A DNA stretch of 64,000 nucleotides, taken from Burkholderiales bacterium. GTDB lineage: Bacteria > Pseudomonadota > Gammaproteobacteria > Burkholderiales > Burkholderiaceae_C. Shown piece after piece: positions 13,256-39,147 of the stretch (position 1 is its first letter; the number at the start of each line of letters is the position of its first letter). Under the pieces are notes generated by a model. The model searched no databases and had not been told where the DNA came from. It saw nothing but the letters and a program-made list of their open reading frames with translations. The stretch covers positions 902 to 64,901 of the forward strand of contig JAGWXI010000003.1 of assembly GCA_018969975.1 (NCBI GenBank), in the 5' to 3' direction. The position numbers were made by a program, and so were the translations under genes.

Positions 13256-13279
13256 ATGTTGTGTTCCTTCCCATGACCG

Positions 13280-14764
13280 TTACTCAAGACCTGCGAACCA
13301 ATGTTCGCGCGCCTTCAAGATCAGGGTTTTGGCCTCTTCTTCGCTTTGGCCGGTGATGGCTGTGAGCTCGTCTACGGCCAAATCGGCCAAATCGTCACGG
13401 GTATGCACACCGTTCTCTGCCAGTTTGGGCAAGAGTTCAACATCCAATCCTTCAAGGTCGCGCAAATCTTGCGACACCTCTTCGACACTTTCTTCGCGAG
13501 CGATTTCCATCGTCAACAAAGCGTCTTTGGCGCGGCTGCGCAATTCATTGACCGTGTCTTCGTCAAAGCTTTCGATCTCGAGCATTTCTTGCAGCGGAAC
13601 GTAGGCGACTTCTTCTAAACTGGTGAAGCCTTCTTCGATCAAGATGTCTGCTACTTCTTGATCGACATCGAGCTTGTCCATGAACAAAGCTCGGATTGAA
13701 TGCGATTCATCAGCCTGCTTTTGGGCGGATTCGGCTGCGTCCATGATGTTGATTTTCCAGCCGGTGAGGTCAGAGGCCAAACGCACGTTTTGGCCACCAC
13801 GTCCAATCGCGATGGCGAGGTTCTCCTCGTCGACCACCACGTCCATCGCGTGTTTTTCTTCATCAACCACGATAGAACTGACGTTGGCAGGGGCCAGAGC
13901 ACCGATCACGAATTGGGCTGGGTCTTCGCTCCACAAAACGATGTCAACGCGCTCTCCAGCAAGCTCGGTGGTGACCGCATTCACGCGGGTACCGCGCACG
14001 CCCACACAGGTGCCGATAGGGTCAACACGTTTGTCGTGCGACAACACAGCAATCTTGGCGCGTGAACCGGGGTCACGGGCGCAGGATTTGATTTCCAACA
14101 AGCCTTGCTCGATTTCAGGCACCTCATGGCGAAACAACTCCACCATGTATTCAGGAGCCGAACGCGACAAGATGATGGGTGCGCCGCGCAATGTGAGGTC
14201 GACGTCCATGATCATGGCGCGCACACGGTCACCGTTACGCAGGTTTTCTTTGGGGATCATTTCGCCACGGCGCAGACGGCCTTCGACGCGACCCGCTTCC
14301 ACAATGATGTCGCCCTTGTCCATGCGTTTGACAGTGCCGACAAAGATTTTTTCGCCGCGTGCCATGAAGTCGTTGAGCAACATTTCGCGCTCTGCATCGC
14401 GGATTTTTTGCAAAATGACTTGCTTCGCAGCCATCGCGCCAATGCGGCCGATGGGCAAGGACTCGATACCTTCTTCGATGTATTCGCCCTCTTCGACGTC
14501 GGCTACCCGCTCGCGGGCATCCATCAAAAGTTCTTCGGCATCAGGATTTTGCAGACCAGCTTCGTCAGGAACGACTAACCAGCGGCGGAAGGTTTCATAG
14601 TCACCCGTGTCACGGTCCATGGCGACGCGGATGTCTACATCTCCTTCGTAGAGTTTTTTGGTCGCTTGTGCGAGCGCAGACTCCACAGCGCCGAAGACGA
14701 TATCGCGCTCCACGTTTTTCTCGCGCGAGATGGCATCTACCAACATCAACATTTCGCGGTTCAT
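13280..14764 (-). CDS. nusA: Transcription termination/antitermination factor NusA
   Basis: [37 protein letters not shown]-terminal acidic repeats. Confidence 0.98.
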
Positions 14765-24431: not shown

Positions 24432-25010
24432 ATGTCATTGATCGAAATTCGCAAGCGCTCCCTGTTGATAGAAACTACGCACCACGAAGGGGGCCCTTTG
24501 GTGGATACCCCGTTAAAACTTGCAGCCTCTTGTGCAGTGATACGTAACCCATTTGCTGGACGCTACGAACCAAATTTGATGCCGTTTATGGCCGAATTGC
24601 GTAGCTTAGGTACCTTGCTAGCAAATGAGTTGGTCGACACCTTGGGAAAAGAAAACGTAGAGGTCTACAGCAAGGCTGCAATCGTCGGCATCAATGGCGA
24701 AATGGAACACGGTGCAGTCTGGCATGAAGCCGGGGGGTGGGCCATGCGTTCGGTTCTTGGTGAACCCAAAGCCATGGTACCTGCGGTGAAAGCTGTTGCC
24801 AGTGCCGGATACCGCATGATGGTTCCTGTTCACTATATTCATGCTTCTTATGTACGAAGCCATTTCAACAGCATAGAAATTGGCATTCAAGATGCGCCAC
24901 GTCCCAACGAAATATTGTTTGCATTGGTCATGGGAACAGGTGGGCGCGTGCACTCTCGCTTAGGTGGTTTACTCAAGGAAAAAGTTTCAGTACACGACGG
25001 ACAGCGCTGA
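24432..25010 (+). CDS. DUF1185 (amino acid synthesis family) protein, paralogue A
   Basis: AVIRNPFAGRY, KAAIVG..GEMEH, VRSHF, DAPRPNEI, RLGGL. Confidence 0.85.
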   Translation: MSLIEIRKRSLLIETTHHEGGPLVDTPLKLAASCAVIRNPFAGRYEPNLMPFMAELRSLGTLLANELVDTLGKENVEVYSKAAIVGINGEMEHGAVWHEAGGWAMRSVLGEPKAMVPAVKAVASAGYRMMVPVHYIHASYVRSHFNSIEIGIQDAPRPNEILFALVMGTGGRVHSRLGGLLKEKVSVHDGQR

Positions 25011-25090: not shown

Positions 25091-28000
25091 TCAAGGTGCG
25101 CGCAGCCGCGATATAGATTCAGTGAGATTCTGCCAAGCGGGTTGCAGGGGTGCGTAGCGCTCCCGCATCCAAGCTACGATTTCTGCTAATTGCTGGTCGT
25201 TAAGGCTGTTTGCAAATCCCGGCATAAAACCAATCTCACGTGATGCGGGTCGTTGAACGCCTTCCAAAATAACCCGAATCAAATTGTCTGGCCTCTCACT
25301 ATGCAATTTGGAACTGAGCGCCAAGGGATGATTCAAGCCAAGCACTTGCGGACCTTCACCATCGTGGTGGCAACTTGCGCAACTGCCCTCAAACTGTCTT
25401 TGTGCGGAACTTGGTAATGGCGCAAATGCGGCTGCATATTGCACGACCTCCAACGCCTGCGTTGCAAGTTGAGGGGTTTCCTTCACAGGGTTGAGGCTAC
25501 TCAAGTAAACAGCCATAGCACGCAAATCACTCTCTCCCACCGCTTGTAATTCTCTTATGACTTGAGCCATGGGGCCTGCGGCCATGCCATGCTGAGGGCT
25601 GTGGCCTTTACGTAAATATTGGTAAAAGGCCTCTTGTGACCATGGCACAGGGCTTCTATTGAAAGCGTTCAATGCAGGTGCTTCCCAGCCATCAACCAAA
25701 GCACCTTGCATATAAGATGTTCGACTTTTCTCGGCACCTAAGAAACCACGAGGTGTATGACATCCTCCACAGTGCCCCACACCGTTGACTAACTCAGCGC
25801 CTCGATTCCAAGCATCAGACTGATTAGCATCGGGTAAGAACCGCGTCTCGGTGTGAAATATCGCATTCCAAAATCCCATCAAAGGCCGCAAATTAAAAGG
25901 AAAAACAAGTTGCGTTTTCGGCGGTCGCGACGACACCGGGGCTTGCGTCATCAAGTAAGCGTACAAAGCCATCATGTCTTCGTCGCGCATTTGTGCAAAG
26001 GCTGTGTAAGGAAAAGCTGGATACAGCGCATGGCCTTCGCGCGATATTCCTTCGCGCATAGCGCGCTCGAACGCACGAAAAGTCCAACCCCCGATGCCGG
26101 TCTCTTTATCGGGTGTGAGATTGGTGGTGTAAACCGTGCCAAATGGTGTGGTCATCGCACGACCACCTGCATTATGTTGTCCATTTTCTGATGTGTGGCA
26201 ACCAGCACAATTGCCTAATGCAGCGACTTGTTGTCCGCGTGCCAACATACTCGCGCTAAAGGAAGACACTTCCACTCCAGCTACTTTGGGCAGACTACTT
26301 CGCCAACCCAGCAATGCTCCACTAACGGTCAAGACACCCATTGCAAAAGCAGAGATTTGCCCTATTCGTCTTCGCCAATAAGGCTTTTGGGCAGGTTGTT
26401 GCGTAAAGGCAGGTTTCCACTTTTTCCATATTGGGGTCGTTTTGTTCGAACCGGTTGAATTGGTACTTACGCTCGAGTCCCCTAGAGGATGCAAAGCCGC
26501 ACGAACCACCTCTGGCGTAAAGGGCGGGTTTCGAAAGCGAATTCCAGTGGCATCAAAAATAGCGTTTGCAATTGCCGCAGTACCCGGTACAGATGATGAC
26601 TCCCCGGCTCCCAAAGGCACCTCATCTTGTCTCGGCATTTGCATAACTTCAATAACTGGCACCTCACGAAAACTCAAAATTGGATAGCTCCCCCACTCTT
26701 GGCTCACCACACTGCCGTTTATGGGGTTCGTTTGCACTTGTTCTTTTAAAGCACGACTGGTGGTTTGCACCACATTTCCATGGACTTGGTGTTGCACCCC
26801 TTGCGGATTGATCATCAAACCAGCATCGTGTCCCACCACCACTCTTTTTACATGTACCTCACCTGTAAGGCGATGTACTTGCACATCAGCAACCCATGCG
26901 GCCCAAGCTGCGCCAAACCCTGGCCACTTGCTGTGAATGTAACGCGCATAGGCAAAACCCTGTCCTTGAAGCCACTCCCCTTCGCGGGCTTGTTGTTGCG
27001 GTTGAACATGCGACTTCCATTGCGCACGATTAGCAGTGGCTTGCACAAGTTCATGCGCTCGCGGATCTTGCAAGATACGTAAGCGGTATTCGACGGGATC
27101 TACTTTGGCCGCAGTTGCTAACTCATCGATATAGCTTTCATGCGCAAAAGAATTGGGTAGCGCCGACACTCCACGCAACCAAGAAGCACGCAATATAGGT
27201 GGCATATCTTGTACACGCACTCGTAGATTTTTGTAGTCGTAGGGAGGGCGTGCAGTGCGGTCACCCATCTCAAAAGCTCGGGCCAAAGGCTCAATCGTGC
27301 GGGTTAACAGCAATGCCAAAGTGGGTGCACCATTCGACGGGTAGGCTGTTTGAAAGTCGTAGGCGGCAGGCGTGCCGTCGGAATAGATACCCCCCCGCAC
27401 TTGCATCAGTTGCGCAGCGCCTTTGGGCTCCCAAACATGCTCTTGCTCGCGGGTTAACTGCACGCGTACTGGTGCAAGCACAGCGCGAGATAACAAGGCA
27501 GCATCAGCCGTCACATCATCAGCCCCATTTCGGCCGTAACATCCTGCAGCCTCCATGCGAACAACATCTACAGCGGTATCTGCAATACCCATCAAGAGAG
27601 CTAAATCAGCTCGAAGGACGTGCGGATTTTGGCTACCCGACCAGACCCGCAATTGAATCTGTGGCGCTTCAGGGTCACCCTTTTCCATCCAATGTGCAAC
27701 AGCACAGGAAGGCCCTAGGGAGGCATGCATCTGGTAAGGCCAAACATAAGTGCGATCCAGAGTTTTATCCGCGTCTAGCAGGGCCTGGTCAACTTGGCCT
27801 TCATTGACTAACTCGCGCGTGGTACTGGATTGGTTACGTAAGGCTTGCTCAATATCTTCTAACCCGCGAATACCTGGCCAAGACTTCCAGTGAACCTCTA
27901 GTTCAAGCAAAGCTTGCTCTGCATGTTCTTCACGTTGCGCAACTACGCCAACAAAGTCGCGTTGCGTCACAACCGCCAAGATACCTGGAATGTGATGGAT

Positions 28001-28753
28001 GGACGCTGGCTCTACACGCTCCAAGGTGTTTCCAATAAAGTCCCCGCTATCAACCCCCGCATAAGGCGGTCGCACTACTCGACCATGTAGCATTCCCGGT
28101 AATCGCATATCGTGCACAAACGTCGTTTCACCCTTAACTTTGGCTAACAAATCCACCCGTGGCAAATTGGTGCCTATCAAGGTGTAATCCGCAGGAGTCT
28201 TCAGTGTGACGCTGGTATCAAGCATCAGCTGCGTCCGTTGGCCTCGTAACCATTGACTAATGTTTGCAGCTTGCGTGGGGCCTCGCACAACACCATCGAT
28301 CATCTGCAACACTGAAACTTCCAAGGACCAAGCTTTTGCAGCTTGCTGCAGGAGCCAATGCCGAGCTTGCGCACACGCATAACGCAAGGGTTGCGCATGG
28401 ATTTGTAAAGAAGCGCTAGCAATGGTGGCGCCTTGGTTTGGAGCCACTGCGGTATTGCCCATTACCACCCGAACCCGCTCAGGCAAGATATTCAGTTCCT
28501 CTGCTACCACCTGTGTTAAAGCGGTACGCAAACCAGTGCCCAAATCCACATGACCATGAAAAGCCGTAACGCTACCGTCATCCCATAAAGCCAATAAAAA
28601 TTCGAGGCCCTCAGCTGGATTTCCCACCACTAAAGCAGGTTGGCCGGGGCTTGGTGGTGGAGCTGGTGGCGGGTCTCGCGCGATCAGCAAGACACCTTGG
28701 GCGACATGCAAATCGGCGCGGCTAAGCGCGAGTTTTGCTCGTAGGTCACTCAT
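25091..28753 (-). CDS. nicB: Nicotinate dehydrogenase large subunit (NicB-like): xanthine-oxidase-family molybdopterin domain fused to tri-haem cytochrome c
   Basis: GHVDLGTG, GMLHGRVVRPP, PLGAGE, ANAIFDATGIRFR; one hydrophobic helix followed by CAGCH, CGGCH and CASCH; ATG at 28753 overlaps the upstream stop; substrate inferred from context. Confidence 0.82.
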   Translation of the reverse strand: MSDLRAKLALSRADLHVAQGVLLIARDPPPAPPPSPGQPALVVGNPAEGLEFLLALWDDGSVTAFHGHVDLGTGLRTALTQVVAEELNILPERVRVVMGNTAVAPNQGATIASASLQIHAQPLRYACAQARHWLLQQAAKAWSLEVSVLQMIDGVVRGPTQAANISQWLRGQRTQLMLDTSVTLKTPADYTLIGTNLPRVDLLAKVKGETTFVHDMRLPGMLHGRVVRPPYAGVDSGDFIGNTLERVEPASIHHIPGILAVVTQRDFVGVVAQREEHAEQALLELEVHWKSWPGIRGLEDIEQALRNQSSTTRELVNEGQVDQALLDADKTLDRTYVWPYQMHASLGPSCAVAHWMEKGDPEAPQIQLRVWSGSQNPHVLRADLALLMGIADTAVDVVRMEAAGCYGRNGADDVTADAALLSRAVLAPVRVQLTREQEHVWEPKGAAQLMQVRGGIYSDGTPAAYDFQTAYPSNGAPTLALLLTRTIEPLARAFEMGDRTARPPYDYKNLRVRVQDMPPILRASWLRGVSALPNSFAHESYIDELATAAKVDPVEYRLRILQDPRAHELVQATANRAQWKSHVQPQQQAREGEWLQGQGFAYARYIHSKWPGFGAAWAAWVADVQVHRLTGEVHVKRVVVGHDAGLMINPQGVQHQVHGNVVQTTSRALKEQVQTNPINGSVVSQEWGSYPILSFREVPVIEVMQMPRQDEVPLGAGESSSVPGTAAIANAIFDATGIRFRNPPFTPEVVRAALHPLGDSSVSTNSTGSNKTTPIWKKWKPAFTQQPAQKPYWRRRIGQISAFAMGVLTVSGALLGWRSSLPKVAGVEVSSFSASMLARGQQVAALGNCAGCHTSENGQHNAGGRAMTTPFGTVYTTNLTPDKETGIGGWTFRAFERAMREGISREGHALYPAFPYTAFAQMRDEDMMALYAYLMTQAPVSSRPPKTQLVFPFNLRPLMGFWNAIFHTETRFLPDANQSDAWNRGAELVNGVGHCGGCHTPRGFLGAEKSRTSYMQGALVDGWEAPALNAFNRSPVPWSQEAFYQYLRKGHSPQHGMAAGPMAQVIRELQAVGESDLRAMAVYLSSLNPVKETPQLATQALEVVQYAAAFAPLPSSAQRQFEGSCASCHHDGEGPQVLGLNHPLALSSKLHSERPDNLIRVILEGVQRPASREIGFMPGFANSLNDQQLAEIVAWMRERYAPLQPAWQNLTESISRLRAP

Positions 28754-29223
28754 TCCGTAGCGGCCATTAAGGCGCAGGCTCGATTCAACGCATCCATAAT
28801 TTCCAGATGAGCACCGCATCGACAAAGATTTCCAGACATGGCATTTCGAATGTGCGCTTCAGTTGGCTTTGGATTCTTATTGAGCATGGCAACCGCTGTC
28901 ATAACCATGCCGTTTAAGCAGTAACCGCATTGAGCTGCTTGGGCATCAACAAACGCTTGCTGCACAAAATGCAATTTTTTCCCAGTGGCGAGCCCCTCTA
29001 GGGTAGTGATAGATCGGTCTTGCACTTCGCTCGCGGGTATCACACATGCCCGAGCAGCAATTCCGTCAACGAGCACAGTGCATGCACCACACTCGCCTAA
29101 TCCACAGCCGTACTTGGGTCCATTGAGTCCTAAGTCGTTGCGCAAAACATGAAGCAAAGTTGCCTGCTTGGTGAGCGACAAACTATGTGTCTGACCATTG
29201 ACGAACAACTGGACCTGTTTCAT
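28750..29223 (-). CDS. nicA: Nicotinate dehydrogenase small subunit, two [2Fe-2S] clusters (NicA-like)
   Basis: GCGLGECGACTV, QCGYC, NLCRCG; coupled to the large subunit; AGGA precedes ATG 29223. Confidence 0.82.
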   Translation of the reverse strand: MKQVQLFVNGQTHSLSLTKQATLLHVLRNDLGLNGPKYGCGLGECGACTVLVDGIAARACVIPASEVQDRSITTLEGLATGKKLHFVQQAFVDAQAAQCGYCLNGMVMTAVAMLNKNPKPTEAHIRNAMSGNLCRCGAHLEIMDALNRACALMAATE

Positions 29224-29237
29224 CGTTCCTATCAGGT

Positions 29238-29960
29238 TCAAGTTATCTTCAGATCGCTCGACTGGATTCGCTTGACGCCCTTAGTCGCCATATTTTTCCA
29301 TGCAGCGTCAACCGAGCCATTGAGGTCAATCCCGCGACAAGCATCTTCCACCACATAGGTGGTAAAGCCCGCAGTGCGAGCATCTAAGGCGGTCCACGCC
29401 ACGCAAAAGTCTGTCGCCAAACCGACCACAAAAACGGTGTGGATGCCACGTTGTTTGAGATAACCTGCTAGCCCAGTTGCGGTTTTCCTATCTGCCTCCA
29501 TGAAGGCTGAGTAGCTGTCAACATTAGCGTGGTAACCCTTACGTAAAACCAATTGGGCCGTTGGGAGTTTGAGGTCGGGGTGCAGCGCCGCATCGTTGCT
29601 GCCTTGGACGCAATGGTCGGGCCACAGCACCTGCGTGCCGTAGGGCATGTTTGTAGTCTCAAAGGGTTTTTTACCAGCATGGGCACTAGCAAATGAGGCG
29701 TGTCCTTGAGTGTGCCAGTCTTGCGTAACGATGATGTTGGCAAAAGCGGAGGCAATTTTGTTGATCACGGGTACAACCTCTGCCCCTTTAGCAACGGGTA
29801 GGGTTCCACCTTCTACAAAGCAATTCTGCACATCAACTACTATCAATGCGGACTTGTTGCTGGGTTTTATTTTCTCTGCTGAGAGCGCCCAAGGTGCCAT
29901 CGTTCCTAACGCACTCAAAATTCCGATCGAACTAACAAGTTGTCTACGATTTTTTTGCAT
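29238..29960 (-). CDS. pncA: Nicotinamidase/pyrazinamidase with N-terminal twin-arginine-like signal
   Basis: VDVQNCF, QDWH, LWPDHC, RKG...DSYSAF, ATDFCV; N-terminus NRRQLV plus hydrophobic stretch. Confidence 0.92.
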   Translation of the reverse strand: MQKNRRQLVSSIGILSALGTMAPWALSAEKIKPSNKSALIVVDVQNCFVEGGTLPVAKGAEVVPVINKIASAFANIIVTQDWHTQGHASFASAHAGKKPFETTNMPYGTQVLWPDHCVQGSNDAALHPDLKLPTAQLVLRKGYHANVDSYSAFMEADRKTATGLAGYLKQRGIHTVFVVGLATDFCVAWTALDARTAGFTTYVVEDACRGIDLNGSVDAAWKNMATKGVKRIQSSDLKIT

Positions 29961-29995: not shown

Positions 29996-30736
29996 CTAAA
30001 CACTTAAGTAATTTCGCTGCACCTCTTCGTCATCTAATAAATCTTGCATCGGAGCCTCATGACGAATTTGACCTTTTTCAAGAATGTAGGCACGGTCTGC
30101 GACCCACTGCGCAAAATGCAAGTTCTGTTCAGACAACAAAATGCTGACGCCTTCAGCCTTGAGTGCCAAGATCATATCGGCCATTTGTTCAACGATAAGC
30201 GGCGCTACGCCTTCGGACGGCTCGTCCAGCAACACTACCAAGGGGTTTGACATCAACGTTCGCGCCACTGTCAGCATTTGTTGCTCTCCGCCACTCATGC
30301 GCCCGCCAGCGCGATCTTGCATCTCGCCAAGGTTGGGAAACAGCTTAAATAATTTTTCATGAGTCCATAAGGGCGCTGGTGTTCCGTCAGGAAACAGTCG
30401 CGCTGGTTGGCGCCCTACTCTCAGGTTTTCTAGAACTGTCAGTTCTCTAAAGATGCGACGATCCTCGGGTACATACCCAAGGCCTTGTCGAGCCACTTGA
30501 TAGGGTTCAGCATGGGAGATATCTCGGTTTAAGAAACTAACCTGTCCACTGCGCTTGGTCATCATGCCCATGATGGCTTTGAGGGTCGTAGATTTACCTG
30601 CACCATTTCGCCCCATCAAGGCCACTACCTCGCCGCGTTGAACCTGAAGGCTCACGTCGAACAGAATATGTGCAGCACCATACCAAGTGTTGAGCTCTTG
30701 GGTCTGAAGCAATGAGTTGGGAGTCATATTCATCAT
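29996..30736 (-). CDS. LIV-type ABC transporter ATPase (LivF-like)
   Basis: GRNGAGKST, MSGGEQQML, LLDEPSEG. Confidence 0.9.
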   Translation of the reverse strand: MMNMTPNSLLQTQELNTWYGAAHILFDVSLQVQRGEVVALMGRNGAGKSTTLKAIMGMMTKRSGQVSFLNRDISHAEPYQVARQGLGYVPEDRRIFRELTVLENLRVGRQPARLFPDGTPAPLWTHEKLFKLFPNLGEMQDRAGGRMSGGEQQMLTVARTLMSNPLVVLLDEPSEGVAPLIVEQMADMILALKAEGVSILLSEQNLHFAQWVADRAYILEKGQIRHEAPMQDLLDDEEVQRNYLSV

Positions 30737-31497
30737 TATTTTTTTTGTTCGAAGGTTTTGCCGCTACCAAAATAGACCTCTTTTACTCTGGGATGATCGC
30801 GGATGTCTTTTGGCAGTCCTTGCGCAATCAATTGGCCCCGCGCCAAAACAATGATTCGATCTGCAAAACCGAAAACTACGTCCATGCTGTGTTCGGTAAA
30901 GAGCACAGCCATACCACTTTGCGTCACCAACTCACGGGTCAGTGCCATCAGTTTGTTACGCTCTGAAGGAGCCATACCTGCCGTAGGTTCGTCCATCAAC
31001 AACAAGCGGGGATGGTTGGCCATTGCTATCGCTAACTCTAATCGTTTGACATCTCCATAAGCGAGTTCGCTACAAGGGCGTTCAGCTTGTTCCACCAAAC
31101 CTACCTGTTCTAGCAAAGCCAGCGCATCCGTTCGACGGTAATGTGTGGCGCGTTGCCACATCGAAAACAAGTGGTTGTCATCAGACAACATAGCCATCTG
31201 TACGTTTTCAACCACTGTCAATGAATAAAAAGTTTCTGCCACTTGGAAGGTTCGACTCACCCCCATTTGCCAAACCTCGCGGGGATGCAGTCCCAGTAAC
31301 GATTTGCCTGCTAGGGTAATTTGACCAATGTCCGGGCGCAGTTGTCCATTTAGCATATTGAAAGTAGTTGACTTACCAGCTCCATTAGGACCAATCAGGG
31401 CTAATAATTCGCCAGCAGCGAGATCAAAACTAATATCGTCTACCGCGAGGTTACCGCCAAAAGATTTGCGAAGGCCTTGTACACAGAGCAAGTTCAT
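30736..31497 (-). CDS. LIV-type ABC transporter ATPase (LivG-like)
   Basis: GPNGAGKST, LAYGDVKRLE, MDEPTAG; start MNLLCV at 31497. Confidence 0.9.
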   Translation of the reverse strand: MNLLCVQGLRKSFGGNLAVDDISFDLAAGELLALIGPNGAGKSTTFNMLNGQLRPDIGQITLAGKSLLGLHPREVWQMGVSRTFQVAETFYSLTVVENVQMAMLSDDNHLFSMWQRATHYRRTDALALLEQVGLVEQAERPCSELAYGDVKRLELAIAMANHPRLLLMDEPTAGMAPSERNKLMALTRELVTQSGMAVLFTEHSMDVVFGFADRIIVLARGQLIAQGLPKDIRDHPRVKEVYFGSGKTFEQKK

Positions 31498-33404
31498 AGG
31501 GCACCACCTTGACGTGCTTTCCGTGAACGCAACCAATCTTGGACAAAGCCTGCTAGTCCTTGTGGGAAAACCATCACTAGCAACAAAATTGTTCCACCCA
31601 AGACTGCTCGCCAGTAGTCAGTACTACGAGCAATCGTATCTTGCAAGGTTGTAAAGGTGATCGCCCCGACCAAAGGACCGACCACAGTTTGGACGCCACC
31701 CAACAACACCATAACTAAGCCATCCACTGATTTGGTGACACCCAAAGCGTCGGGCGAAATACTGCCCTTAGAGAACGCAAACAACGCTCCCGATAAACCT
31801 GCAAATGTCGCAGCCACAACAAATCCAACCCATTGCAGACGTTTGACATGCATGCCAATTGCTTCAGCACGTACCACCGAGTCACGACTAGCACGCAAAG
31901 CGTAACCAAATGGAGCAAACAACATACGACGCAATGCATAAATTCCAAGGATACAAAAACCCAAAGTAAGGTAGTAATAGATACGCTTATTGGCTAGCCA
32001 AGGACTCGGCCATACGCTGGTGAGTCCGTTACTTCCCCCCGTGAAGCTATCCCATTGAAAACAGATCGACCATAATATTTGACCAAACGCTAAAGTCAGC
32101 ATGGCAAGGTAAACACCCGATAAACGAACGCAGAACCAACCGATCAAAGCAGCTGCAATAGCAGTTAGCAATGGCGCAAAAATCAAAGTTAATTCCATAG
32201 GCATTTGAGCGCGCAGAACCAAAAGAGCTGCAATATAAGCGCCCAAGCCAAAGTACGCCGCATGTCCAAAGGAATGCATTCCTGCAGGCCCCATGATGAA
32301 GTGCAAACTGCAGGCAAATAGTGCTGCAGTCAATAAATCGATTGCCAAAACTGTTGTGTACGGTGATTGGGAAGTGAGATGGGGCAAAGCCCAAAGCACC
32401 ACCAAACACAAAATCCAAATACCCCACTGCATTTGACTGACCAATCGCAAAGGTGCTTCCCCTTCCCCTGGATTACGGGGCGTGCTTTGCGGTTTACCCA
32501 TTAAGCCCCATGGACGCAGCATCAATACCAAGGCCATTACCAAAAACTCTGCTACTAATGTAAGTTTTGAAAAGGCAAAACTGGTTCCCCATAATTCCAC
32601 GGTTCCTAAACCCACGCACAAGGCTTTGATTTCAGCAATCAACAATGCCGCAACATAGGCTCCAGGAATCGAACCCATACCACCTACCACCACAACCACA
32701 AATGCGTCGCCGATGGTCAATAAATCTAAACCTAGATTGGCAGGTTCGCGCGGCAATTGCAATGCACCGCCTAGGCCAGCAAGTGCACAGCCCAACGCAA
32801 ACACACCGGTAAATAACCAGTGTTGGTGAATGCCCAAAGCGCCAACCATTTCTCGGTCTTGCGTAGCTGCACGCACCAGGATGCCGAAAAGGGTTCGGTT
32901 CAACAGCAACCACATCAGCCCCAAGACCAAAGGCCCTACTACGATCAATAACAAGTCATAGGTGGGAAAACGACGACCCAAAATATCAATGGCACCAGAA
33001 AAACCCGGCGCGCGCGGGCCTAACAAGTCTTCCGGTCCCCAGATCCATAAAGCGGCATCTTTGATAACCAATACCAAAGCAAAGGTAGCTAATAGTTGAA
33101 ACAACTCAGGCGCACGATAGATGCGTCGTAAAAGTAGCATTTCTATTAACCCGCCCAACAAGCCAGTTATCAAAGCTGCTAATAACAACCAGCACCAAAA
33201 ACTCAGGGCCAATCCGACCGAACGACCAAAATACTCAACCAAGGAGTAGGCAATATAAATACCCAGCATGAAAAACGAGCCATGGGCAAAGTTGACGATA
33301 CGCGTGACCCCAAAGATCAACGACAGTCCAGCGGAGACTAAAAATAAAGAGGACGCACCGGCCAGACCGTTGAGCGCTTGGACCACAAAGCCAGAAAAAT
33401 CCAT
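31494..33404 (-). CDS. Fused LivH-LivM-type ABC permease
   Basis: First half GLSLIFGVTRIVNFAHG; second half SFGHAAYFGLGAY and GVYLAMLTLAF; start MDFSGF at 33404. Confidence 0.88.
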   Translation of the reverse strand: MDFSGFVVQALNGLAGASSLFLVSAGLSLIFGVTRIVNFAHGSFFMLGIYIAYSLVEYFGRSVGLALSFWCWLLLAALITGLLGGLIEMLLLRRIYRAPELFQLLATFALVLVIKDAALWIWGPEDLLGPRAPGFSGAIDILGRRFPTYDLLLIVVGPLVLGLMWLLLNRTLFGILVRAATQDREMVGALGIHQHWLFTGVFALGCALAGLGGALQLPREPANLGLDLLTIGDAFVVVVVGGMGSIPGAYVAALLIAEIKALCVGLGTVELWGTSFAFSKLTLVAEFLVMALVLMLRPWGLMGKPQSTPRNPGEGEAPLRLVSQMQWGIWILCLVVLWALPHLTSQSPYTTVLAIDLLTAALFACSLHFIMGPAGMHSFGHAAYFGLGAYIAALLVLRAQMPMELTLIFAPLLTAIAAALIGWFCVRLSGVYLAMLTLAFGQILWSICFQWDSFTGGSNGLTSVWPSPWLANKRIYYYLTLGFCILGIYALRRMLFAPFGYALRASRDSVVRAEAIGMHVKRLQWVGFVVAATFAGLSGALFAFSKGSISPDALGVTKSVDGLVMVLLGGVQTVVGPLVGAITFTTLQDTIARSTDYWRAVLGGTILLLVMVFPQGLAGFVQDWLRSRKARQGGAL

Positions 33405-33424
33405 GTCATCACAATCAATGAAAA

Positions 33425-33452
33425 TCAGCGTGCTAACGAGAAAGCACGCTGA
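33425..33452 (-). terminator. Stem-loop after the binding-protein gene (partial terminator or mRNA stabiliser)
   Basis: Perfect 10-bp stem TCAGCGTGCT/AGCACGCTGA, followed by TTTTC on the minus strand. Confidence 0.65.
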
Positions 33453-33466
33453 CAAGAAAGATCTGC

Positions 33467-34672
33467 TTAGTCGGCAGCGCGTAGTTTCTTGACTTCTTCG
33501 TTGCTCGGTTGAAAGTTAGCACCGTCAAGGTAGCGATAGTCCACCATCACGCCCTTACCGTTCTCGTTTTTGATGCGTCCAACAAAGGCACCCATTGTGG
33601 ATTGATGGTCTTGGCCACGAAAGGTCACTTTACCAAACGGGCTTGTCAAACTAAGCTCGCGAAAAGCAACAGCTAGTTTTTCAGAGTCAGTGCTGCCAGC
33701 TTTTTTGATGCCAGCGGCCAAAGCCTGGATCATGGTGTAGCCCACTACGGAACCTAAGCGAGGATAGTCATTGAACTTAGCTTGGTAAGCACTTAAAAAA
33801 GCTTTGTGCTCGGGAGTATTAATACCATTCCATGGATAGCCTGTGACGATCCAGCCATTAGGTGTCTCGTCCTTCAAGGGATCCAAGTACTCAGGCTCAC
33901 CCGTGAGCAAACTCACAACTTCGCGTCCTTGGAACAAGCCGCGGGTATTGCCTTCACGTACGAACTTGGTTAAGTCCGCGCCAAAGAGCACGTTGAAGAT
34001 AGCATCGGGCTTTGCATCAGCGAGCGCTTGAGCCACCGCGCCTGCGTCGACTTTACCCAGCGCTGGCGCCTGCTCAGCGACAAACTCCACATCAGGTTGT
34101 GCGGCTTTTAGTAATTGCTTGAAAGTGGCAACGGCAGATTGGCCATATTCGTAGTTGGGATAGACCACTGCCCAGCGCTTTTTCTTAAGCTTGGCTGCTT
34201 CTGGCACCAACATTGCCGATTGCATGTATGTAGAGGCGCGTAATCGGTAGGTGTATTTATTACCCCCTTGCCAAACGATTTTGTCTGTAAGCGGCTCACC
34301 CGCGAGGAAAAAGAATTTCTTTTGTTTAGAGAAATCTGTGACCGCTAAACCAATATGCGAGAGAAAAGTTCCGCTGAGAAGGTCAACTTGTTCACGCGAG
34401 ACCAACTCTTCGGCAGCTCTAACTGCATCGCCAGGATTAGCATTGTCATCACGAATGAAGAGTTGCAGTTTTTTTCCATTTACACCACCGGCGGCGTTAA
34501 TTTCGTCGACCGCTAGATCCATGCCTTTTTTGTAGGGTTCCAAAAAGGCGGGCTGGGCTTTGTAGCTATTGATCTCTCCTATCTTGATGACGCTTTGTGC
34601 AAATACCGGGGCAAGACCAACTGCCAATACAACAGCAACTGCTGTGTGGGTCAGATTACGAAAACTTTTCAT
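33467..34672 (-). CDS. ABC transporter periplasmic binding protein (LivJ/K-like fold; probably nicotinate-related)
   Basis: Signal peptide ending VFA-Q, IKIGEINSY, EINAAGGVNG; ligand inferred from context. Confidence 0.85.
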   Translation of the reverse strand: MKSFRNLTHTAVAVVLAVGLAPVFAQSVIKIGEINSYKAQPAFLEPYKKGMDLAVDEINAAGGVNGKKLQLFIRDDNANPGDAVRAAEELVSREQVDLLSGTFLSHIGLAVTDFSKQKKFFFLAGEPLTDKIVWQGGNKYTYRLRASTYMQSAMLVPEAAKLKKKRWAVVYPNYEYGQSAVATFKQLLKAAQPDVEFVAEQAPALGKVDAGAVAQALADAKPDAIFNVLFGADLTKFVREGNTRGLFQGREVVSLLTGEPEYLDPLKDETPNGWIVTGYPWNGINTPEHKAFLSAYQAKFNDYPRLGSVVGYTMIQALAAGIKKAGSTDSEKLAVAFRELSLTSPFGKVTFRGQDHQSTMGAFVGRIKNENGKGVMVDYRYLDGANFQPSNEEVKKLRAAD

Positions 34673-34716
34673 ACTGGCTCCTTTAATAAATTGAGACTGA
34701 ACTATGCGCCGACCAT

Positions 34717-35301
34717 TCATCGTAAACCATCTTGGCCGACGATTTCTGAGGCTTGCAATCCGCCAATGCGAGGCAAAGGCCGACCGCTATCCGTGACGAC
34801 AACTGCAACCACGATTTCATTGGCCCTTGGTGCATCGCTCACACGCGCTTCCATGGCATCAAAGTGGCTACGTACGAAAGCTGCATCTTTGTGCCCTAAC
34901 GGGACATCAATGATGGTTCCTAATGTGCCGCGTTTTTTAGCTGAAGGAACCAACGCCGCACCATGGCTCACGGCCTTACGTAAAGGCGCGCCTAATTTGG
35001 GATGCAAGATAGCGGCTGCATGCTCTAGTTCGCCATCTTCGCCCACGATGGCAGCTTTGCCGTAACTTTGCGCTTGGTCTGGCGATATTCCCAAGGCCTG
35101 AACACAGCGCTGACCCAACAAACCACCTAACTCTTCACCCATCTCAATCAACACGTCAAGATTAGGGCTGTATTTGCCCGCATAAGGGTTATCAATCACA
35201 GCCATTGCAAGAGCTTGGCGTGTAGGGGGTTCTACGCTTTGCCCACCTTCGGTGTGGGTTTCGTCGATTTGCACAACAATTTTGCGAATTTTGGCTTTCA
35301 T
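34717..35301 (-). CDS. DUF1185 (amino acid synthesis family) protein, paralogue B
   Basis: AVIDNPYAGKY, YGKAAIVGEDGELEH, VRSHFD, DAPRANEI, RIGGL. Confidence 0.87.
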   Translation of the reverse strand: MKAKIRKIVVQIDETHTEGGQSVEPPTRQALAMAVIDNPYAGKYSPNLDVLIEMGEELGGLLGQRCVQALGISPDQAQSYGKAAIVGEDGELEHAAAILHPKLGAPLRKAVSHGAALVPSAKKRGTLGTIIDVPLGHKDAAFVRSHFDAMEARVSDAPRANEIVVAVVVTDSGRPLPRIGGLQASEIVGQDGLR

Positions 35302-35313
35302 GGGTTTTTTCTC

Positions 35314-36213
35314 CTAAACATTTAAGCAGGCTTTAAGCCCAACTATTTCGATTTGCCCTTGGCAATACAACAGGGCAGCAAATATAAGTCCTTGCGTTTG
35401 CAATCCTTGTGCATATTGTTGTCCTCTCTCCAATGCTTGGGCTACAACTTTTGGTGCAAGTACTGGCACATCCACCGTCACCCGACGCGAACCCAAGTCC
35501 GTATCGTCAAGTAATTGATTAGCGGGTTGTCGCACTATGCTTGGATCGTCACAGTTCACAGCATTTGCAATTAAGGTTGCTGCAGCATCTGCCTGTGCTG
35601 CCGTTGCCGCTAAAACAGTAACACTATCTGCAATACCGAATGAGTGACTTCGACCCCGCCAACCGCTAGTAGCAACACCTCGCACAGGCATTTGTGCCTC
35701 GATAAGCAGTTCTCCATCAAGTAGTAACTCGGAGTCAGGATCACGCCCCATGGCCCGCGTGATGTCGCTTACCAAGCCAATTTGTACGGAAGTATCGTTG
35801 GTCAAATAGAGGGCAATATCGCCCCCATTGTTTACCCATGCGCGCTCAATACCAGATCTCTGGTAGGACGATAAAACAGCTTGCGCTACAGCGCCCGCCA
35901 CGGCCGCCATCGACGTAATAAACCCTTCGGGATGTGTCAAAGTAGGTTGTGCTAAGGGCGCACAGGCCTCCCACATACTGCGCGCGATAGTGCCCCGCAT
36001 GGGATTAGACGCACACAAATCAATGGCTCTTCGCAACTGCGCTAACTCTTGCACCAGTTCAGGCAGCATGGTTTGAAACTGCGCCCAAGCGAGTTCGTGC
36101 GCGCTGAGAACGCAATTTGGTTCTCCATCTGCATGTACCGTTAAGTCAATTGGGCCGTGTCGAAAATGCCAACACTGTGGATTGCGGTTGTAACGCTGAG
36201 CTGTCATCAACAT
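35314..36213 (-). CDS. UPF0280 / ApbE-like protein
   Basis: HGPIDL, MAAVAGAVA, NNGGDI, GVATSGWRGRS, ADAAATLIAN; ATG at 36213 overlaps the hnr stop. Confidence 0.85.
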   Translation of the reverse strand: MLMTAQRYNRNPQCWHFRHGPIDLTVHADGEPNCVLSAHELAWAQFQTMLPELVQELAQLRRAIDLCASNPMRGTIARSMWEACAPLAQPTLTHPEGFITSMAAVAGAVAQAVLSSYQRSGIERAWVNNGGDIALYLTNDTSVQIGLVSDITRAMGRDPDSELLLDGELLIEAQMPVRGVATSGWRGRSHSFGIADSVTVLAATAAQADAAATLIANAVNCDDPSIVRQPANQLLDDTDLGSRRVTVDVPVLAPKVVAQALERGQQYAQGLQTQGLIFAALLYCQGQIEIVGLKACLNV

Positions 36214-37805
36214 CAACCCAACATTGGTGGGTTGTCTAACGGCCAAGGACTATCACTGGCAGGAGGCGCCACCCACCGAATCTGCTTAGGCGCGCCATCA
36301 TTGTGCCAAGCGCCGTACTTTAAGCTGTTATCCAAACTGCGTACGTACCCCATATGCCCACCCAACGTTTCGTAGTCAGACAACCGCATGGTGAACTCGA
36401 TCGGTGCAACGATAGCGGGTGTTGGAACTGTGCCAAAACTACCAGGCGGCATGCGCATCACGTCCACCATGATGGTGATTCCACCACCCGGCCAAACATA
36501 AGAAGGTGCTCCGCCACAAGTAACGTTCACTAATGCACGCTTTATTGCATGTGTTAATTGCACAGGGTTGTCTGTGACACCAGCTCGCAAACTCCCACCC
36601 GCACCTCCTAAAAATAATACAGAAACCATCGACGGTTCACAGTTTTCACCAATGCGATCAACCACCCGACGAACACTGGCTGGCATCTCCGCTATTTGCG
36701 GTTGGAGTTGATCGTCGAGTACATACCAAGCAGAATGTTCGCCCGTAGTTGAGGTCATCAATAAGCGAAGCCCAGACCACGCAACAGCACTGTCCCATGG
36801 ATCCAAGATAGCAAGGGGGTCTTGGATATCGGTGCCACCCCATCCTGTGCCCGGATTAGCAACTTGGAAGTAACGCCCCGGTGTTGACTTGCGCCCTTTT
36901 ATACGAATTCCACTGGGCTGCATGTTCAAACAGCGTCCAGCCTGGTGCTCTGACAATACTCCGGTGATGTGGTCATCCACCACCACCACTTCATCGCACA
37001 ACCCTAACCACTGCTGGGCAAAAATGCCAATGGCGGCCGATCCGCAACCAACGCGCATTCTTTGTTCAGTTATCCCGTTGACGATCGGGGGTTGCCCAGC
37101 TTGCAACACGACGTTAGCGCCACCATCGATACTGACTTCCACCGGATGGAGGTTACAAAGGTCTTGCATCATGTTCATGGTGACGCGGCCTTCTTTTTTA
37201 GTACCTCCCGTCAAGTGATGAACACCGCCTAGGCTAAGCATTTGTGAGCCATATTCGGCCGTCGTAACATGCCCCACCACTTCACCATTACACCGCACCG
37301 CTGCTTGTTCAGGTCCAAGGTAGCGGTCAGTGTCGATTTTTACTTTCAAACTGCAATAACTAAAAATACCTTCAGTAACTACCGTCACCATATCGACACC
37401 GCGCGATTGCGAAGCGACTATGAAAGGCGCTGGTTTGTAATCGGGATAGGTTGTGGAAGATCCGATGCCGGTAACAAACATACCCTGGGAATCACTCGGT
37501 TGTTTGTCCTCCACACTTACGCTTAAAGACCCACGCTCCGATAAATCTGAGATCTCACTTGCACAAGTTGAACCTTGTCGTAGCACCACAACTGGGTCGA
37601 TACGAATCAAAATTCCTTTGCGATTGGCATACCGATCACATGCACCTACGCGACCATCAGAGATTTGACACAAGACGGGACAAGCATTGCACTCCACCTT
37701 ATCACCGATCATCTGTTCATTGCGAAGTGCAGATCGCTCCATCCCCCATTGGAGATTCACATCGTCTGAACTAGGCAGGCCGTCACCTTTGATGTGGGTC
37801 GTCAT
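36213..37805 (-). CDS. hnr: 6-hydroxynicotinate reductase-like Fe-S protein
   Basis: N-terminal CNACPVLC...GACDRYAN Cys cluster; TTYPDYKPAPFIV, VTVVTEGIFSYC, EYGSQMLSLGG, VDDHITG, VWPGGGI; divergent from enamidase; ATG 37805 likely start. Confidence 0.85.
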   Translation of the reverse strand: MTTHIKGDGLPSSDDVNLQWGMERSALRNEQMIGDKVECNACPVLCQISDGRVGACDRYANRKGILIRIDPVVVLRQGSTCASEISDLSERGSLSVSVEDKQPSDSQGMFVTGIGSSTTYPDYKPAPFIVASQSRGVDMVTVVTEGIFSYCSLKVKIDTDRYLGPEQAAVRCNGEVVGHVTTAEYGSQMLSLGGVHHLTGGTKKEGRVTMNMMQDLCNLHPVEVSIDGGANVVLQAGQPPIVNGITEQRMRVGCGSAAIGIFAQQWLGLCDEVVVVDDHITGVLSEHQAGRCLNMQPSGIRIKGRKSTPGRYFQVANPGTGWGGTDIQDPLAILDPWDSAVAWSGLRLLMTSTTGEHSAWYVLDDQLQPQIAEMPASVRRVVDRIGENCEPSMVSVLFLGGAGGSLRAGVTDNPVQLTHAIKRALVNVTCGGAPSYVWPGGGITIMVDVMRMPPGSFGTVPTPAIVAPIEFTMRLSDYETLGGHMGYVRSLDNSLKYGAWHNDGAPKQIRWVAPPASDSPWPLDNPPMLG

Positions 37806-37956
37806 GGGATGAGTGGTACCGTGATTAGTTTGTGGAATCACTAATATAACAACTAACGCATAAACCACAGTAGGTGAAATTCCCCTAGAAACCGGCGTGT
37901 CGAGGCATTACGATTTGCATACCCACTCTTAGTTAGCTATACATTGGAGCAAGTAA

Positions 37957-39147
37957 ATGGCCACGGCAACCGTTGAAGAAAAATCTGGAAAAGTTGTAAT
38001 ACGTAATATTGGATTGATGCTTTCTGGGGACATTGACCGTCCCATATTGAATGCCAATACTATCGTTATCCATGATGGGATCATCACCGCAGTCGGACAA
38101 GAAAAAGATTGCGATATTTCACAAGCAAAAACCACCATCGACGTGCGCCAAACATGTATTGCTCCTGGGTTGATAGACAGCCATGTGCATCCCGTATTTG
38201 GTGATTGGACACCTCGCCAAAACCAATTGGGCTGGATTGAGTCGACTATGAATGGTGGCGTCACCACGATGATTTCAGCTGGTGAAGTCCACTTACCTGG
38301 TCGACCCAAAGATATATTGGGCCTCAAGGCATTAGCCATCACAGCACAACGTGCATTTGATAATTTTCGCCCTGGGGGCGTAAAAGTGATTGCTGGTGCG
38401 CCTATCATTGAAAAAGGAATGACGGAACATGACTTCCAAGAACTTGCTGAAGCTGGGGTCATGCTCTTAGGTGAAGTTGGGCTAGGGTCTGTAAAAGCTG
38501 GCTACGAAGCCAAGGAAATGGTATCTTGGGCTCGAAAATATGGCATACAAAGCACCATTCATACAGGTGGGCCGTCCATTCCTGGTTCAGGTTTAATTGA
38601 TAAAGATGTCGTTCTTGAGGCGGATGCTGATGTGATTGGACACATCAATGGCGGTCACACCTCATTACCTGAATCTCACGTGTGTGAACTTTGCGAAAAG
38701 TCCATCAGAGCTATAGAGATCGTGCACAACGGTAACGAACGAGTTGCAATTGCAGCAGCAAAAGCAGCTTTAGAACTCAAGTGTCCGCATCGAGTTATTT
38801 TGGGTACTGATGGACCCGCGGGATCGGGTGTTCAACCATTAGGAATGCTTCGAATGATCGCCTTACTCTCAAGCTTGGCAAATATTCCAGCCGAGTTGGT
38901 TTTTTGTTTTGCAACTGGGAACACTGCGCGAATCCGTCAATTAAATTGTGGACTGATCGAAGTAGGTCGGGCAGCAGACTTTGTGTTTATGGACAGGGCG
39001 CAACATACTGCTGGAAAAACATTGCTTGAGAGCGTCAGTTTGGGCGACATTCCAGGTATTGGTATGGTGATGATTGACGGTTTGATTAGGTGTTTTAGAA
39101 GTCGTAACACCCCACCAGCGACAGAGGTACCCCAAGTAGTTCACTGA
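37957..39147 (+). CDS. ena: Enamidase-like binuclear amidohydrolase
   Basis: PGLIDSHVH, GDWTPRQ, ISAGEVHLPGRP, GEVG, IHTGG, GHINGG, LGTD; adjacent to hnr. Confidence 0.85.
   Translation: MATATVEEKSGKVVIRNIGLMLSGDIDRPILNANTIVIHDGIITAVGQEKDCDISQAKTTIDVRQTCIAPGLIDSHVHPVFGDWTPRQNQLGWIESTMNGGVTTMISAGEVHLPGRPKDILGLKALAITAQRAFDNFRPGGVKVIAGAPIIEKGMTEHDFQELAEAGVMLLGEVGLGSVKAGYEAKEMVSWARKYGIQSTIHTGGPSIPGSGLIDKDVVLEADADVIGHINGGHTSLPESHVCELCEKSIRAIEIVHNGNERVAIAAAKAALELKCPHRVILGTDGPAGSGVQPLGMLRMIALLSSLANIPAELVFCFATGNTARIRQLNCGLIEVGRAADFVFMDRAQHTAGKTLLESVSLGDIPGIGMVMIDGLIRCFRSRNTPPATEVPQVVH

Follow-up and report, generated by a model that had tools for sequence, protein, structure and literature searches.

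Background

How does an enzyme in which no flavin-binding domain can be recognized come to carry a covalently attached flavin? The question is raised by a gene pair in a 64,000-nucleotide stretch of contig JAGWXI010000003.1 from a Burkholderiales bacterium (assembly GCA_018969975.1), which we call the window and to whose positions all window coordinates refer. The first gene of the pair, an hnr-like gene that we call hnr (36213..37805, minus strand), codes for a 530-residue predicted Fe-S protein, the homologues of which, at 68-88% identity, carry the name 6-hydroxynicotinate reductase (EC 1.3.7.1). The second (35314..36213, minus strand) codes for a 299-residue protein of the UPF0280/COG2122 family. 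Alhapel and colleagues reportedly described in the abstract of a 2006 study that the purified Hnr of E. barkeri contains a covalently bound flavin on the enzyme itself. The initial annotation of the locus, made from the sequence alone, put the covalent flavin together with ApbE-type motifs that it recognized in the UPF0280 protein, and proposed that the latter may be the flavinyl transferase dedicated to Hnr.

We used profile, structure and comparative genomic searches to investigate this proposal. The UPF0280 protein has the fold and most of the active-site core of the ApbE enzymes, and its gene accompanies hnr with great regularity, making it very probably a dedicated accessory or maturation factor of the reductase. 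That it acts by transferring flavin mononucleotide (FMN) to Hnr is a more specific claim drawn by analogy with ApbE, to which we assign a probability of about 0.4.

Linkage of UPF0280 to hnr across genomes

The two genes of the window overlap by a single nucleotide. The minus strand reads GGT TGA TG, wherein the TGA stop codon of hnr (36215-36213) has one base in common with the ATG start codon of UPF0280 (36213-36211), and the TGATG overlap at 36211-36215 that the initial annotation described is therefore exact. The hnr reading frame extends upstream to a GTG (36213..37868), while the ATG at 37805, from which the 530 residues are counted, matches the starts of its homologues. An alternative TTG start also lies 11 codons upstream of the UPF0280 start, but alignments with relatives of the protein begin at about residue 3-15 as counted from the ATG.

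Co-occurrence had been suggested as a check on the proposal, and it supports the linkage. UPF0280 stands directly downstream of hnr in all 80 of the 80 Burkholderiales loci surveyed. Of 401 Pseudomonadota genomes sampled evenly, the same 21 contain Hnr and a match to the UPF0280 model NF003322; the two genes are neighbors in each of them, with no change of order, and the other 380 genomes contain neither. As the genomes are related to each other, this count describes the sample and does not amount to a statistical test. One contig scan for the pair returned only Burkholderiales, and a plasmid search only Proteobacteria. Two more divergent UPF0280 representatives (about 40% identity, lower G+C) also lie behind hnr with an overlapping stop and start. 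Such overlapping junctions recur in several alphaproteobacterial-like hnr loci, junctions in other lineages overlap or abut, and many relatives have a gap of 25-150 nucleotides between the two genes instead of an overlap. The UPF0280 proteins are mostly 47-52% identical to that of the window; the corresponding values are 65-83% for Hnr and 75-91% for two other proteins of the locus, DUF1185 and enamidase. Since accessory factors often change more quickly than the catalytic subunits that they serve, the faster divergence of UPF0280 fits a helper, as a weakly suggestive point.

A gene coupled so closely to that of an enzyme could also encode a permanent part of it. UPF0280 might be a stable reductase subunit that holds flavin adenine dinucleotide (FAD) or another nucleotide non-covalently and offers an electron path into Hnr in aerobes without the clostridial ferredoxin supply. 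The one-nucleotide overlap suggests matched synthesis of the two proteins, the PDB title of 3pnd calls Salmonella ApbE an FAD-binding protein, and none of the cluster reading frames scanned appears to be a gene dedicated to a ferredoxin or an NAD(P)H reductase. However, UPF0280 is far less conserved than Hnr, the overlap gives way to a gap in many relatives, the protein has neither an NAD(P)H-binding domain nor a Cys ligand, and the flavin of the E. barkeri enzyme is said to be bound to Hnr itself. On these grounds we regard a subunit role as improbable.

Two further approaches were applied to the pair. A complex prediction with Hnr residues 30-530 and UPF0280, each entered as an alignment, scored 0.00, which is no evidence either way. 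A Rosetta-stone search returned 16 long proteins carrying the UPF0280 domain, several of which align to Hnr and then to UPF0280. Two of these fusions were checked at the DNA level, on long-read contigs of 3x and 10x coverage; in both the reading frame shifts inside the Hnr or the UPF0280 match, and on the 10x contig the neighboring genes are split too. Since the matches change frame on low-coverage long-read contigs, we rejected these two as assembly artefacts that are unusable as Rosetta-stone evidence, and gave the remaining fusions no weight.

The UPF0280 protein belongs to the ApbE superfamily

The UPF0280 protein of the window matches the NCBIfam model NF003322 with 341.7 bits (cut-off 290) over residues 13-293, and its close relatives bear the precomputed Pfam assignment PF27030 (AbpE_bact). 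The other NCBIfam UPF0280 models cover only the core (about residues 47-226), with scores far under their cut-offs. An AlphaFold2 model of the protein has a mean predicted local distance difference test score (pLDDT) of 95. Its top structural match is DVU1097 of Desulfovibrio vulgaris (PDB 2o34; Z 20.7, root-mean-square deviation 3.2 over 216 residues, 24% identity), which the family profile also recovers at E 1e-13; DUF375, which appears in the title of this entry, is presumably the same family as UPF0280/COG2122. This is followed by about 20 entries of ApbE, Ftp and FmnB at Z 14.2-16.6 (about 210-220 residues, root-mean-square deviation 3.1-3.9), with matches across residues 10-299 to 4ig1, 1vrm, 4xgv, 6nxi, 7esa, 3pnd and 5mgy, after which the scores fall to Z 8 or less for unrelated T-fold proteins. 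The fold so recognized is that of ApbE, in which paired T-fold-like domains enclose a central cavity for the nucleotide. Foldseek likewise matches the model to ApbE-type structures with E values of 8e-6 to 1e-3. A comparison by hhalign of the family alignment, which holds 104 relatives at 38-57% identity, with 22 ApbE sequences, E. coli Ftp among them, gave a probability of 96.8% at E 2e-10. The relation between UPF0280 and ApbE is thus visible by profile-profile comparison, and not by comparison with the Pfam ApbE model PF02424.

The lack of a signal peptide or lipobox, which the initial annotation had pointed out, is borne out by the model. Residues 1-30, all of a polar or charged stretch, form strands of the core fold in the model and leave no room for a signal peptide; the match to mature ApbE starts at residue 10-12, and the sequence before Cys14 is not a lipobox. 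On its modelled structure, we place the protein in the cytoplasm and, within the ApbE superfamily, in the UPF0280/COG2122 branch. The superfamily label is already known from the literature and databases, as is the gene cluster. The window protein itself departs somewhat from the rest of its subfamily in sequence, with Cys at position 14, where 94 of the 104 relatives have Arg, and Ser at position 101, where 98 of them have Pro.

An ApbE-like active site without the catalytic histidine

The protein contains the three motifs noted in the initial annotation, GGDI (130-133), ATSG (181-184) and ADAAAT (208-213). Across the 104 relatives these hardly vary: no exception is found at G130, G131, D132, A181, S183, G184, D209 or A212, and T182, A211 and T213 (103/104) are nearly invariant. 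Such conservation of the motifs is well beyond chance. According to a review, Ser241, His257 and Asp285 of V. cholerae ApbE are the only conserved active-site residues among ApbEs (PMC12052999). The hhalign alignment equates S183 with Ser241 and D209 with Asp285, and it also superposes the GGD motif and the ADAxxT motif, including T213. In T. pallidum Ftp the Thr equivalent to T213 is a Mg2+ ligand.

The third of these residues has no counterpart. Compared with ApbE, 18-20 residues are missing between the TSG strand and the SVTV strand. The deletion removes the HxxDPxTG loop, which in ApbE bears the general base His257, and no conserved His substitutes for it, the sole nearby His, H190, being found in 33 of the 104 relatives. 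In place of the His loop, UPF0280 and DVU1097 share a short loop of the form G-[R/H]-S-x-S-L-G. Within it lies the nearly invariant Arg188, a His in DVU1097, which might substitute for the missing general base. Because the Ser, Asp, Thr and GGD are retained and the His segment is deleted, UPF0280 can be said to have kept the nucleotide/Mg2+ core and not the known general base. It thus resembles ApbE, Ftp and FmnB in its whole-chain fold, in GGD, in the Ser of TSG and in the Asp and Thr of ADAxxT, and differs from them in its low identity (about 17%), in being about 30-50 residues shorter, in the deleted His loop and in its invisibility to PF02424.

The preserved Mg2+ and pyrophosphate residues would also serve an enzyme acting on small molecules, for example a Mg2+-dependent dinucleotide pyrophosphatase that attacks nicotinamide adenine dinucleotide (NAD) or nicotinic acid adenine dinucleotide (NaAD) and feeds nicotinamide or nicotinate catabolism. 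PDB titles call T. pallidum Ftp a bifunctional FMN transferase/FAD pyrophosphatase, and a PncA-like gene is present in the cluster. However, UPF0280 tracks hnr and not pncA or nicAB, and follows hnr in clusters with other hydroxylases and without pncA; a bond to a single partner enzyme is seen in its relatives as well (PMC5764234). Such an activity is therefore a very improbable explanation of the gene.

Hnr and the source of its flavin

Hnr, the putative target of UPF0280, has no Pfam, NCBIfam or PDB family match, the only hit being a sub-threshold one to a small barrel domain. Its AlphaFold2 model (pLDDT 84) found no solved-fold match either (Foldseek best E 0.03; wide VIA search best Z 3.5), which does not prove a new fold, since the 530-residue chain was searched undivided. 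No known or classical flavin-binding domain was recognized in these family and fold searches, and this absence suits a tethered cofactor. A proteobacterial Hnr homologue is reported to be 42% identical to E. barkeri Hnr (PMC3511419), and the neighbors of hnr in the window encode an enamidase orthologue and a nicotinate-hydroxylase-like pair.

Seven Cys are invariant in Hnr (39, 42, 46, 56, 151, 254 and 389), the first four of which form a C-x2-C-x3-C-x9-C cluster. The 2006 study of Alhapel and colleagues is said to have found one [2Fe-2S] and two [4Fe-4S] clusters in the E. barkeri enzyme; by this count, the seven are fewer than the twelve Cys usually needed. In one complete genome (contig 1, about 2969820-2971261) the hnr homologue is distributed over two overlapping frames, corresponding to residues 36-269 and 265-525, with an intact UPF0280 gene downstream; either a frameshift that has left a pseudogene or an error in sequencing may account for the split.

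If the flavin of Hnr is attached by a transferase, a canonical ApbE might be thought to suffice. A six-frame search with PF02424 gave no match in the window's genome, which is 89% complete, nor did the model match anything in 6 of the 15 complete genomes that carry Hnr and UPF0280. No protein with the ApbE fold other than UPF0280 was detected in these ApbE-less genomes. Because of these six, a canonical ApbE, as far as sequence searches reveal it, cannot be the general source of the covalent Hnr flavin. No protein with an FMN_bind domain (PF04205) was found in the window's genome, at the same 89% completeness.

The acceptor site is a different matter. ApbE recognizes the motif D-x-x-[S/T]-G-A-[S/T] in its targets (PMC12052999), where it mostly lies within an FMN_bind domain. 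That Hnr lacks this motif, as the initial annotation remarked, holds for the family at large: it occurs in 0 of 47 Hnr sequences, and even the shorter G-A-[ST] is missing from the Hnr of the window. Unlike the targets of ApbE, the presumed target here thus has neither an FMN_bind domain nor the acceptor motif. The segment VTGIGSSTT, which was guessed to hold the acceptor, does contain two invariant Thr (T118 and T119), but the guess gains no specific support, as more than 30 other Ser and Thr are equally invariant in the proteobacterial sample on which invariance was judged. Residues 305-331 and 181-200 of Hnr are near-invariant in the 47 sequences and modelled with a pLDDT of only 62-79. Ser, Thr, Gly and His are abundant in both stretches, and the candidate acceptors in them include S307, T308 and T325 in the first and S187, S191 and T199 in the second. 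They could be cofactor or modification loops, and from the model they seem at least as attractive as acceptor candidates as VTGIGSSTT.

Since the fold and the Ser/Asp/Thr core agree with ApbE, and the family model, the catalytic His and the acceptor motif do not, UPF0280 is best described as having the ApbE fold without the ApbE family signature; it may work like ApbE and should not be filed as one.

Flavin transfer compared with other helper functions

In the mechanism that we favor, UPF0280 would bind FAD and Mg2+ through the retained ApbE core, namely GGD, the Ser of TSG and the Asp and Thr of ADAAAT. It would then join FMN through a phosphoester bond to apo-Hnr, on a Ser or Thr outside any canonical site, with release of adenosine monophosphate (AMP), and Hnr, without a classical flavin-binding fold of its own, would thereby gain its covalently bound flavin. 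The parts of the original proposal that stood are the cytoplasmic ApbE fold and the strict linkage to hnr, to which are added the lack of a flavin fold in Hnr and of a canonical ApbE in several carriers of the pair. A cytoplasmic ApbE with a single cognate target has a precedent in the system for K. pneumoniae fumarate reductase, and in trypanosomatids ApbE domains are even fused to their own targets (PMC12052999).

Several observations weigh against this mechanism. The segment with His257 is deleted from UPF0280 and not replaced by another conserved His, and Hnr offers no acceptor motif. PF02424 and the Pfam copy used both miss UPF0280 (E <= 0.01; six-frame genome search). Moreover, the flavin of Hnr may be linked in the 8-alpha or C6 manner, and such links usually form without a helper. 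Finally, the only genetically studied COG2122 members, which belong to another branch, function in a pathway without a known flavoprotein (PMC5764234). These members, DvMF_0044 of D. vulgaris Miyazaki F and MA1715 of M. acetivorans, are needed together with DUF39 and NIL/ferredoxin proteins for homocysteine synthesis; the former has a fitness pattern nearly identical to that of DUF39 (r = 0.98), and the latter is needed at low sulfide (PMC5764234).

The UPF0280 protein is of the same family as DVU1097, DvMF_0044 and MA1715, and like these COG2122 relatives it represents one protein tied to one ferredoxin-linked Fe-S partner enzyme (PMC5764234). In contrast to DvMF_0044 and MA1715, its partner is Hnr and not DUF39 with NIL/ferredoxin, and its context is nicotinate catabolism and not sulfur assimilation. 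The DUF39 model PF01837 was found in 0 of the 401 Pseudomonadota genomes, including that of the window and the 20 other UPF0280 carriers, in a search whose controls, M. jannaschii and M. acetivorans, were positive. We also considered whether Hnr might be a distant relative of DUF39; PF01837 has no match in the 401 genomes, hnr loci included, although a remote homology may escape a search of this kind. A methanogen COG2122 member has a C-terminal Cys-rich motif (PMC9431491), whereas the subfamily studied here has no conserved Cys, the maximum in any alignment column being 36 of 104. A sulfur relay is unlikely for want of a conserved Cys among the 104 relatives, and we rejected such a role for this subfamily.

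These relatives lend substance to another explanation, in which UPF0280 is a dedicated helper of Hnr that is not a flavin transferase and acts instead by inserting or repairing Fe-S or other cofactors, by nucleotide-dependent activation or by chaperoning assembly. Its closest structure is indeed DVU1097 (Z 20.7) and not an ApbE, and the requirement for COG2122 jointly with DUF39 and NIL/ferredoxin (PMC5764234) points the same way, as do the missing His loop and the missing acceptor motif; the co-occurrence with hnr, for its part, fits any obligate helper equally well. However, sulfur trafficking of the MA1715 type suits neither the Cys-poor UPF0280 proteins nor the reaction of Hnr, which is sulfur-free, and DUF39 was not found in the 401 genomes, the 21 with UPF0280 among them. 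In addition, the residues that are conserved correspond to the Mg2+/pyrophosphate site of ApbE, pointing to dinucleotide chemistry. We consider a non-flavin helper somewhat unlikely, and retain FMN transfer to Hnr as the reading that we prefer.

The nicotinate gene cluster

On the minus strand of the window, hnr and UPF0280 are followed by genes for a DUF1185 protein, a leucine-isoleucine-valine (LIV)-type importer, a PncA-like protein, a [2Fe-2S] subunit and a Mo-cofactor/cytochrome c hydroxylase. The DUF1185/AA_synth gene (34717..35301, minus strand) starts 12 nucleotides past the UPF0280 stop behind its own GGAG ribosome-binding site, and its product matches PF06684 (E 4e-72) and PDB 2qtp (E 6e-86); DUF1185 is present in 77 of the 80 Burkholderiales hnr loci. 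By their Pfam matches, the ATP-binding cassette (ABC) importer (29996..34720, minus strand) comprises a binding protein, a fused permease and two ATPases, and the next group (25091..29960, minus strand) an isochorismatase-family, PncA-like protein followed by the NicAB-like pair of [2Fe-2S] subunit and Mo-cofactor/cytochrome c hydroxylase. Divergently from hnr runs the gene for the enamidase orthologue, an amidohydrolase (37957..39147, plus strand), with a full-length match to 2vun (E 5.5e-106), an entry titled ENAMIDASE that we take to be the E. barkeri enzyme.

Because of the 2vun-like enamidase and the homologues named 6-hydroxynicotinate reductase, the cluster appears to be the E. barkeri-type nicotinate route already described in Proteobacteria. 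In comparison with that cluster, the hydroxylase, hnr, the enamidase and the ABC transporter are all found here. In the accessible part of its description by Shettigar et al. 2012 (PMC3511419), further elements of the cluster most likely correspond to UPF0280 and DUF1185, and no role is assigned there to the UPF0280 gene.

The window contains two DUF1185/AA_synth paralogues that lie apart, at 24432-25010 (plus strand) and 34717-35301 (minus strand). In Paraburkholderia xenovorans LB400 (12489-13724 of its locus) and in most Paraburkholderia loci two copies stand in tandem directly after UPF0280, and from this arrangement the conserved core looks like Hnr, UPF0280 and two DUF1185 proteins. The structure 2qtp is presumably SPO0826, one of two structures in the paper on DUF1185. 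Because 'branched-chain' ABC transporter genes lie nearby, that paper assigned DUF1185 a putative function in amino-acid metabolism (PMC2954203). As the equivalent LIV-type transporter here belongs to a nicotinate cluster, the context behind the name 'AA_synth' may be misleading.

Implications

The pairing of a UPF0280 helper with the covalent flavin of Hnr does not appear in the literature that we searched. In practical terms, heterologous expression of proteobacterial or clostridial Hnr should include the UPF0280 gene. If the helper indeed attaches FMN, this would explain how an enzyme without a recognizable flavin domain comes by a covalent flavin. It would also add a flavin transferase that works without the catalytic His of ApbE or a known acceptor motif, so that more proteins could be predicted to be flavinylated.

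A broader, somewhat unlikely extension of this idea is that UPF0280/COG2122 proteins form a second class of cytoplasmic protein-cofactor transferases that lack the catalytic His. By means of the Mg2+/dinucleotide core of ApbE, these would fasten FMN, or a different group derived from a nucleotide, to ferredoxin-linked Fe-S reductases that have non-canonical acceptor sites and no classical flavin fold. Hnr would be one such target, and the DUF39 aspartate-semialdehyde sulfurtransferases that anaerobes possess may be others. FMN transfer by UPF0280 would likewise provide a concrete hypothesis for the part played by COG2122 in DUF39-dependent homocysteine synthesis, the pathway to which the family has been linked (PMC5764234).

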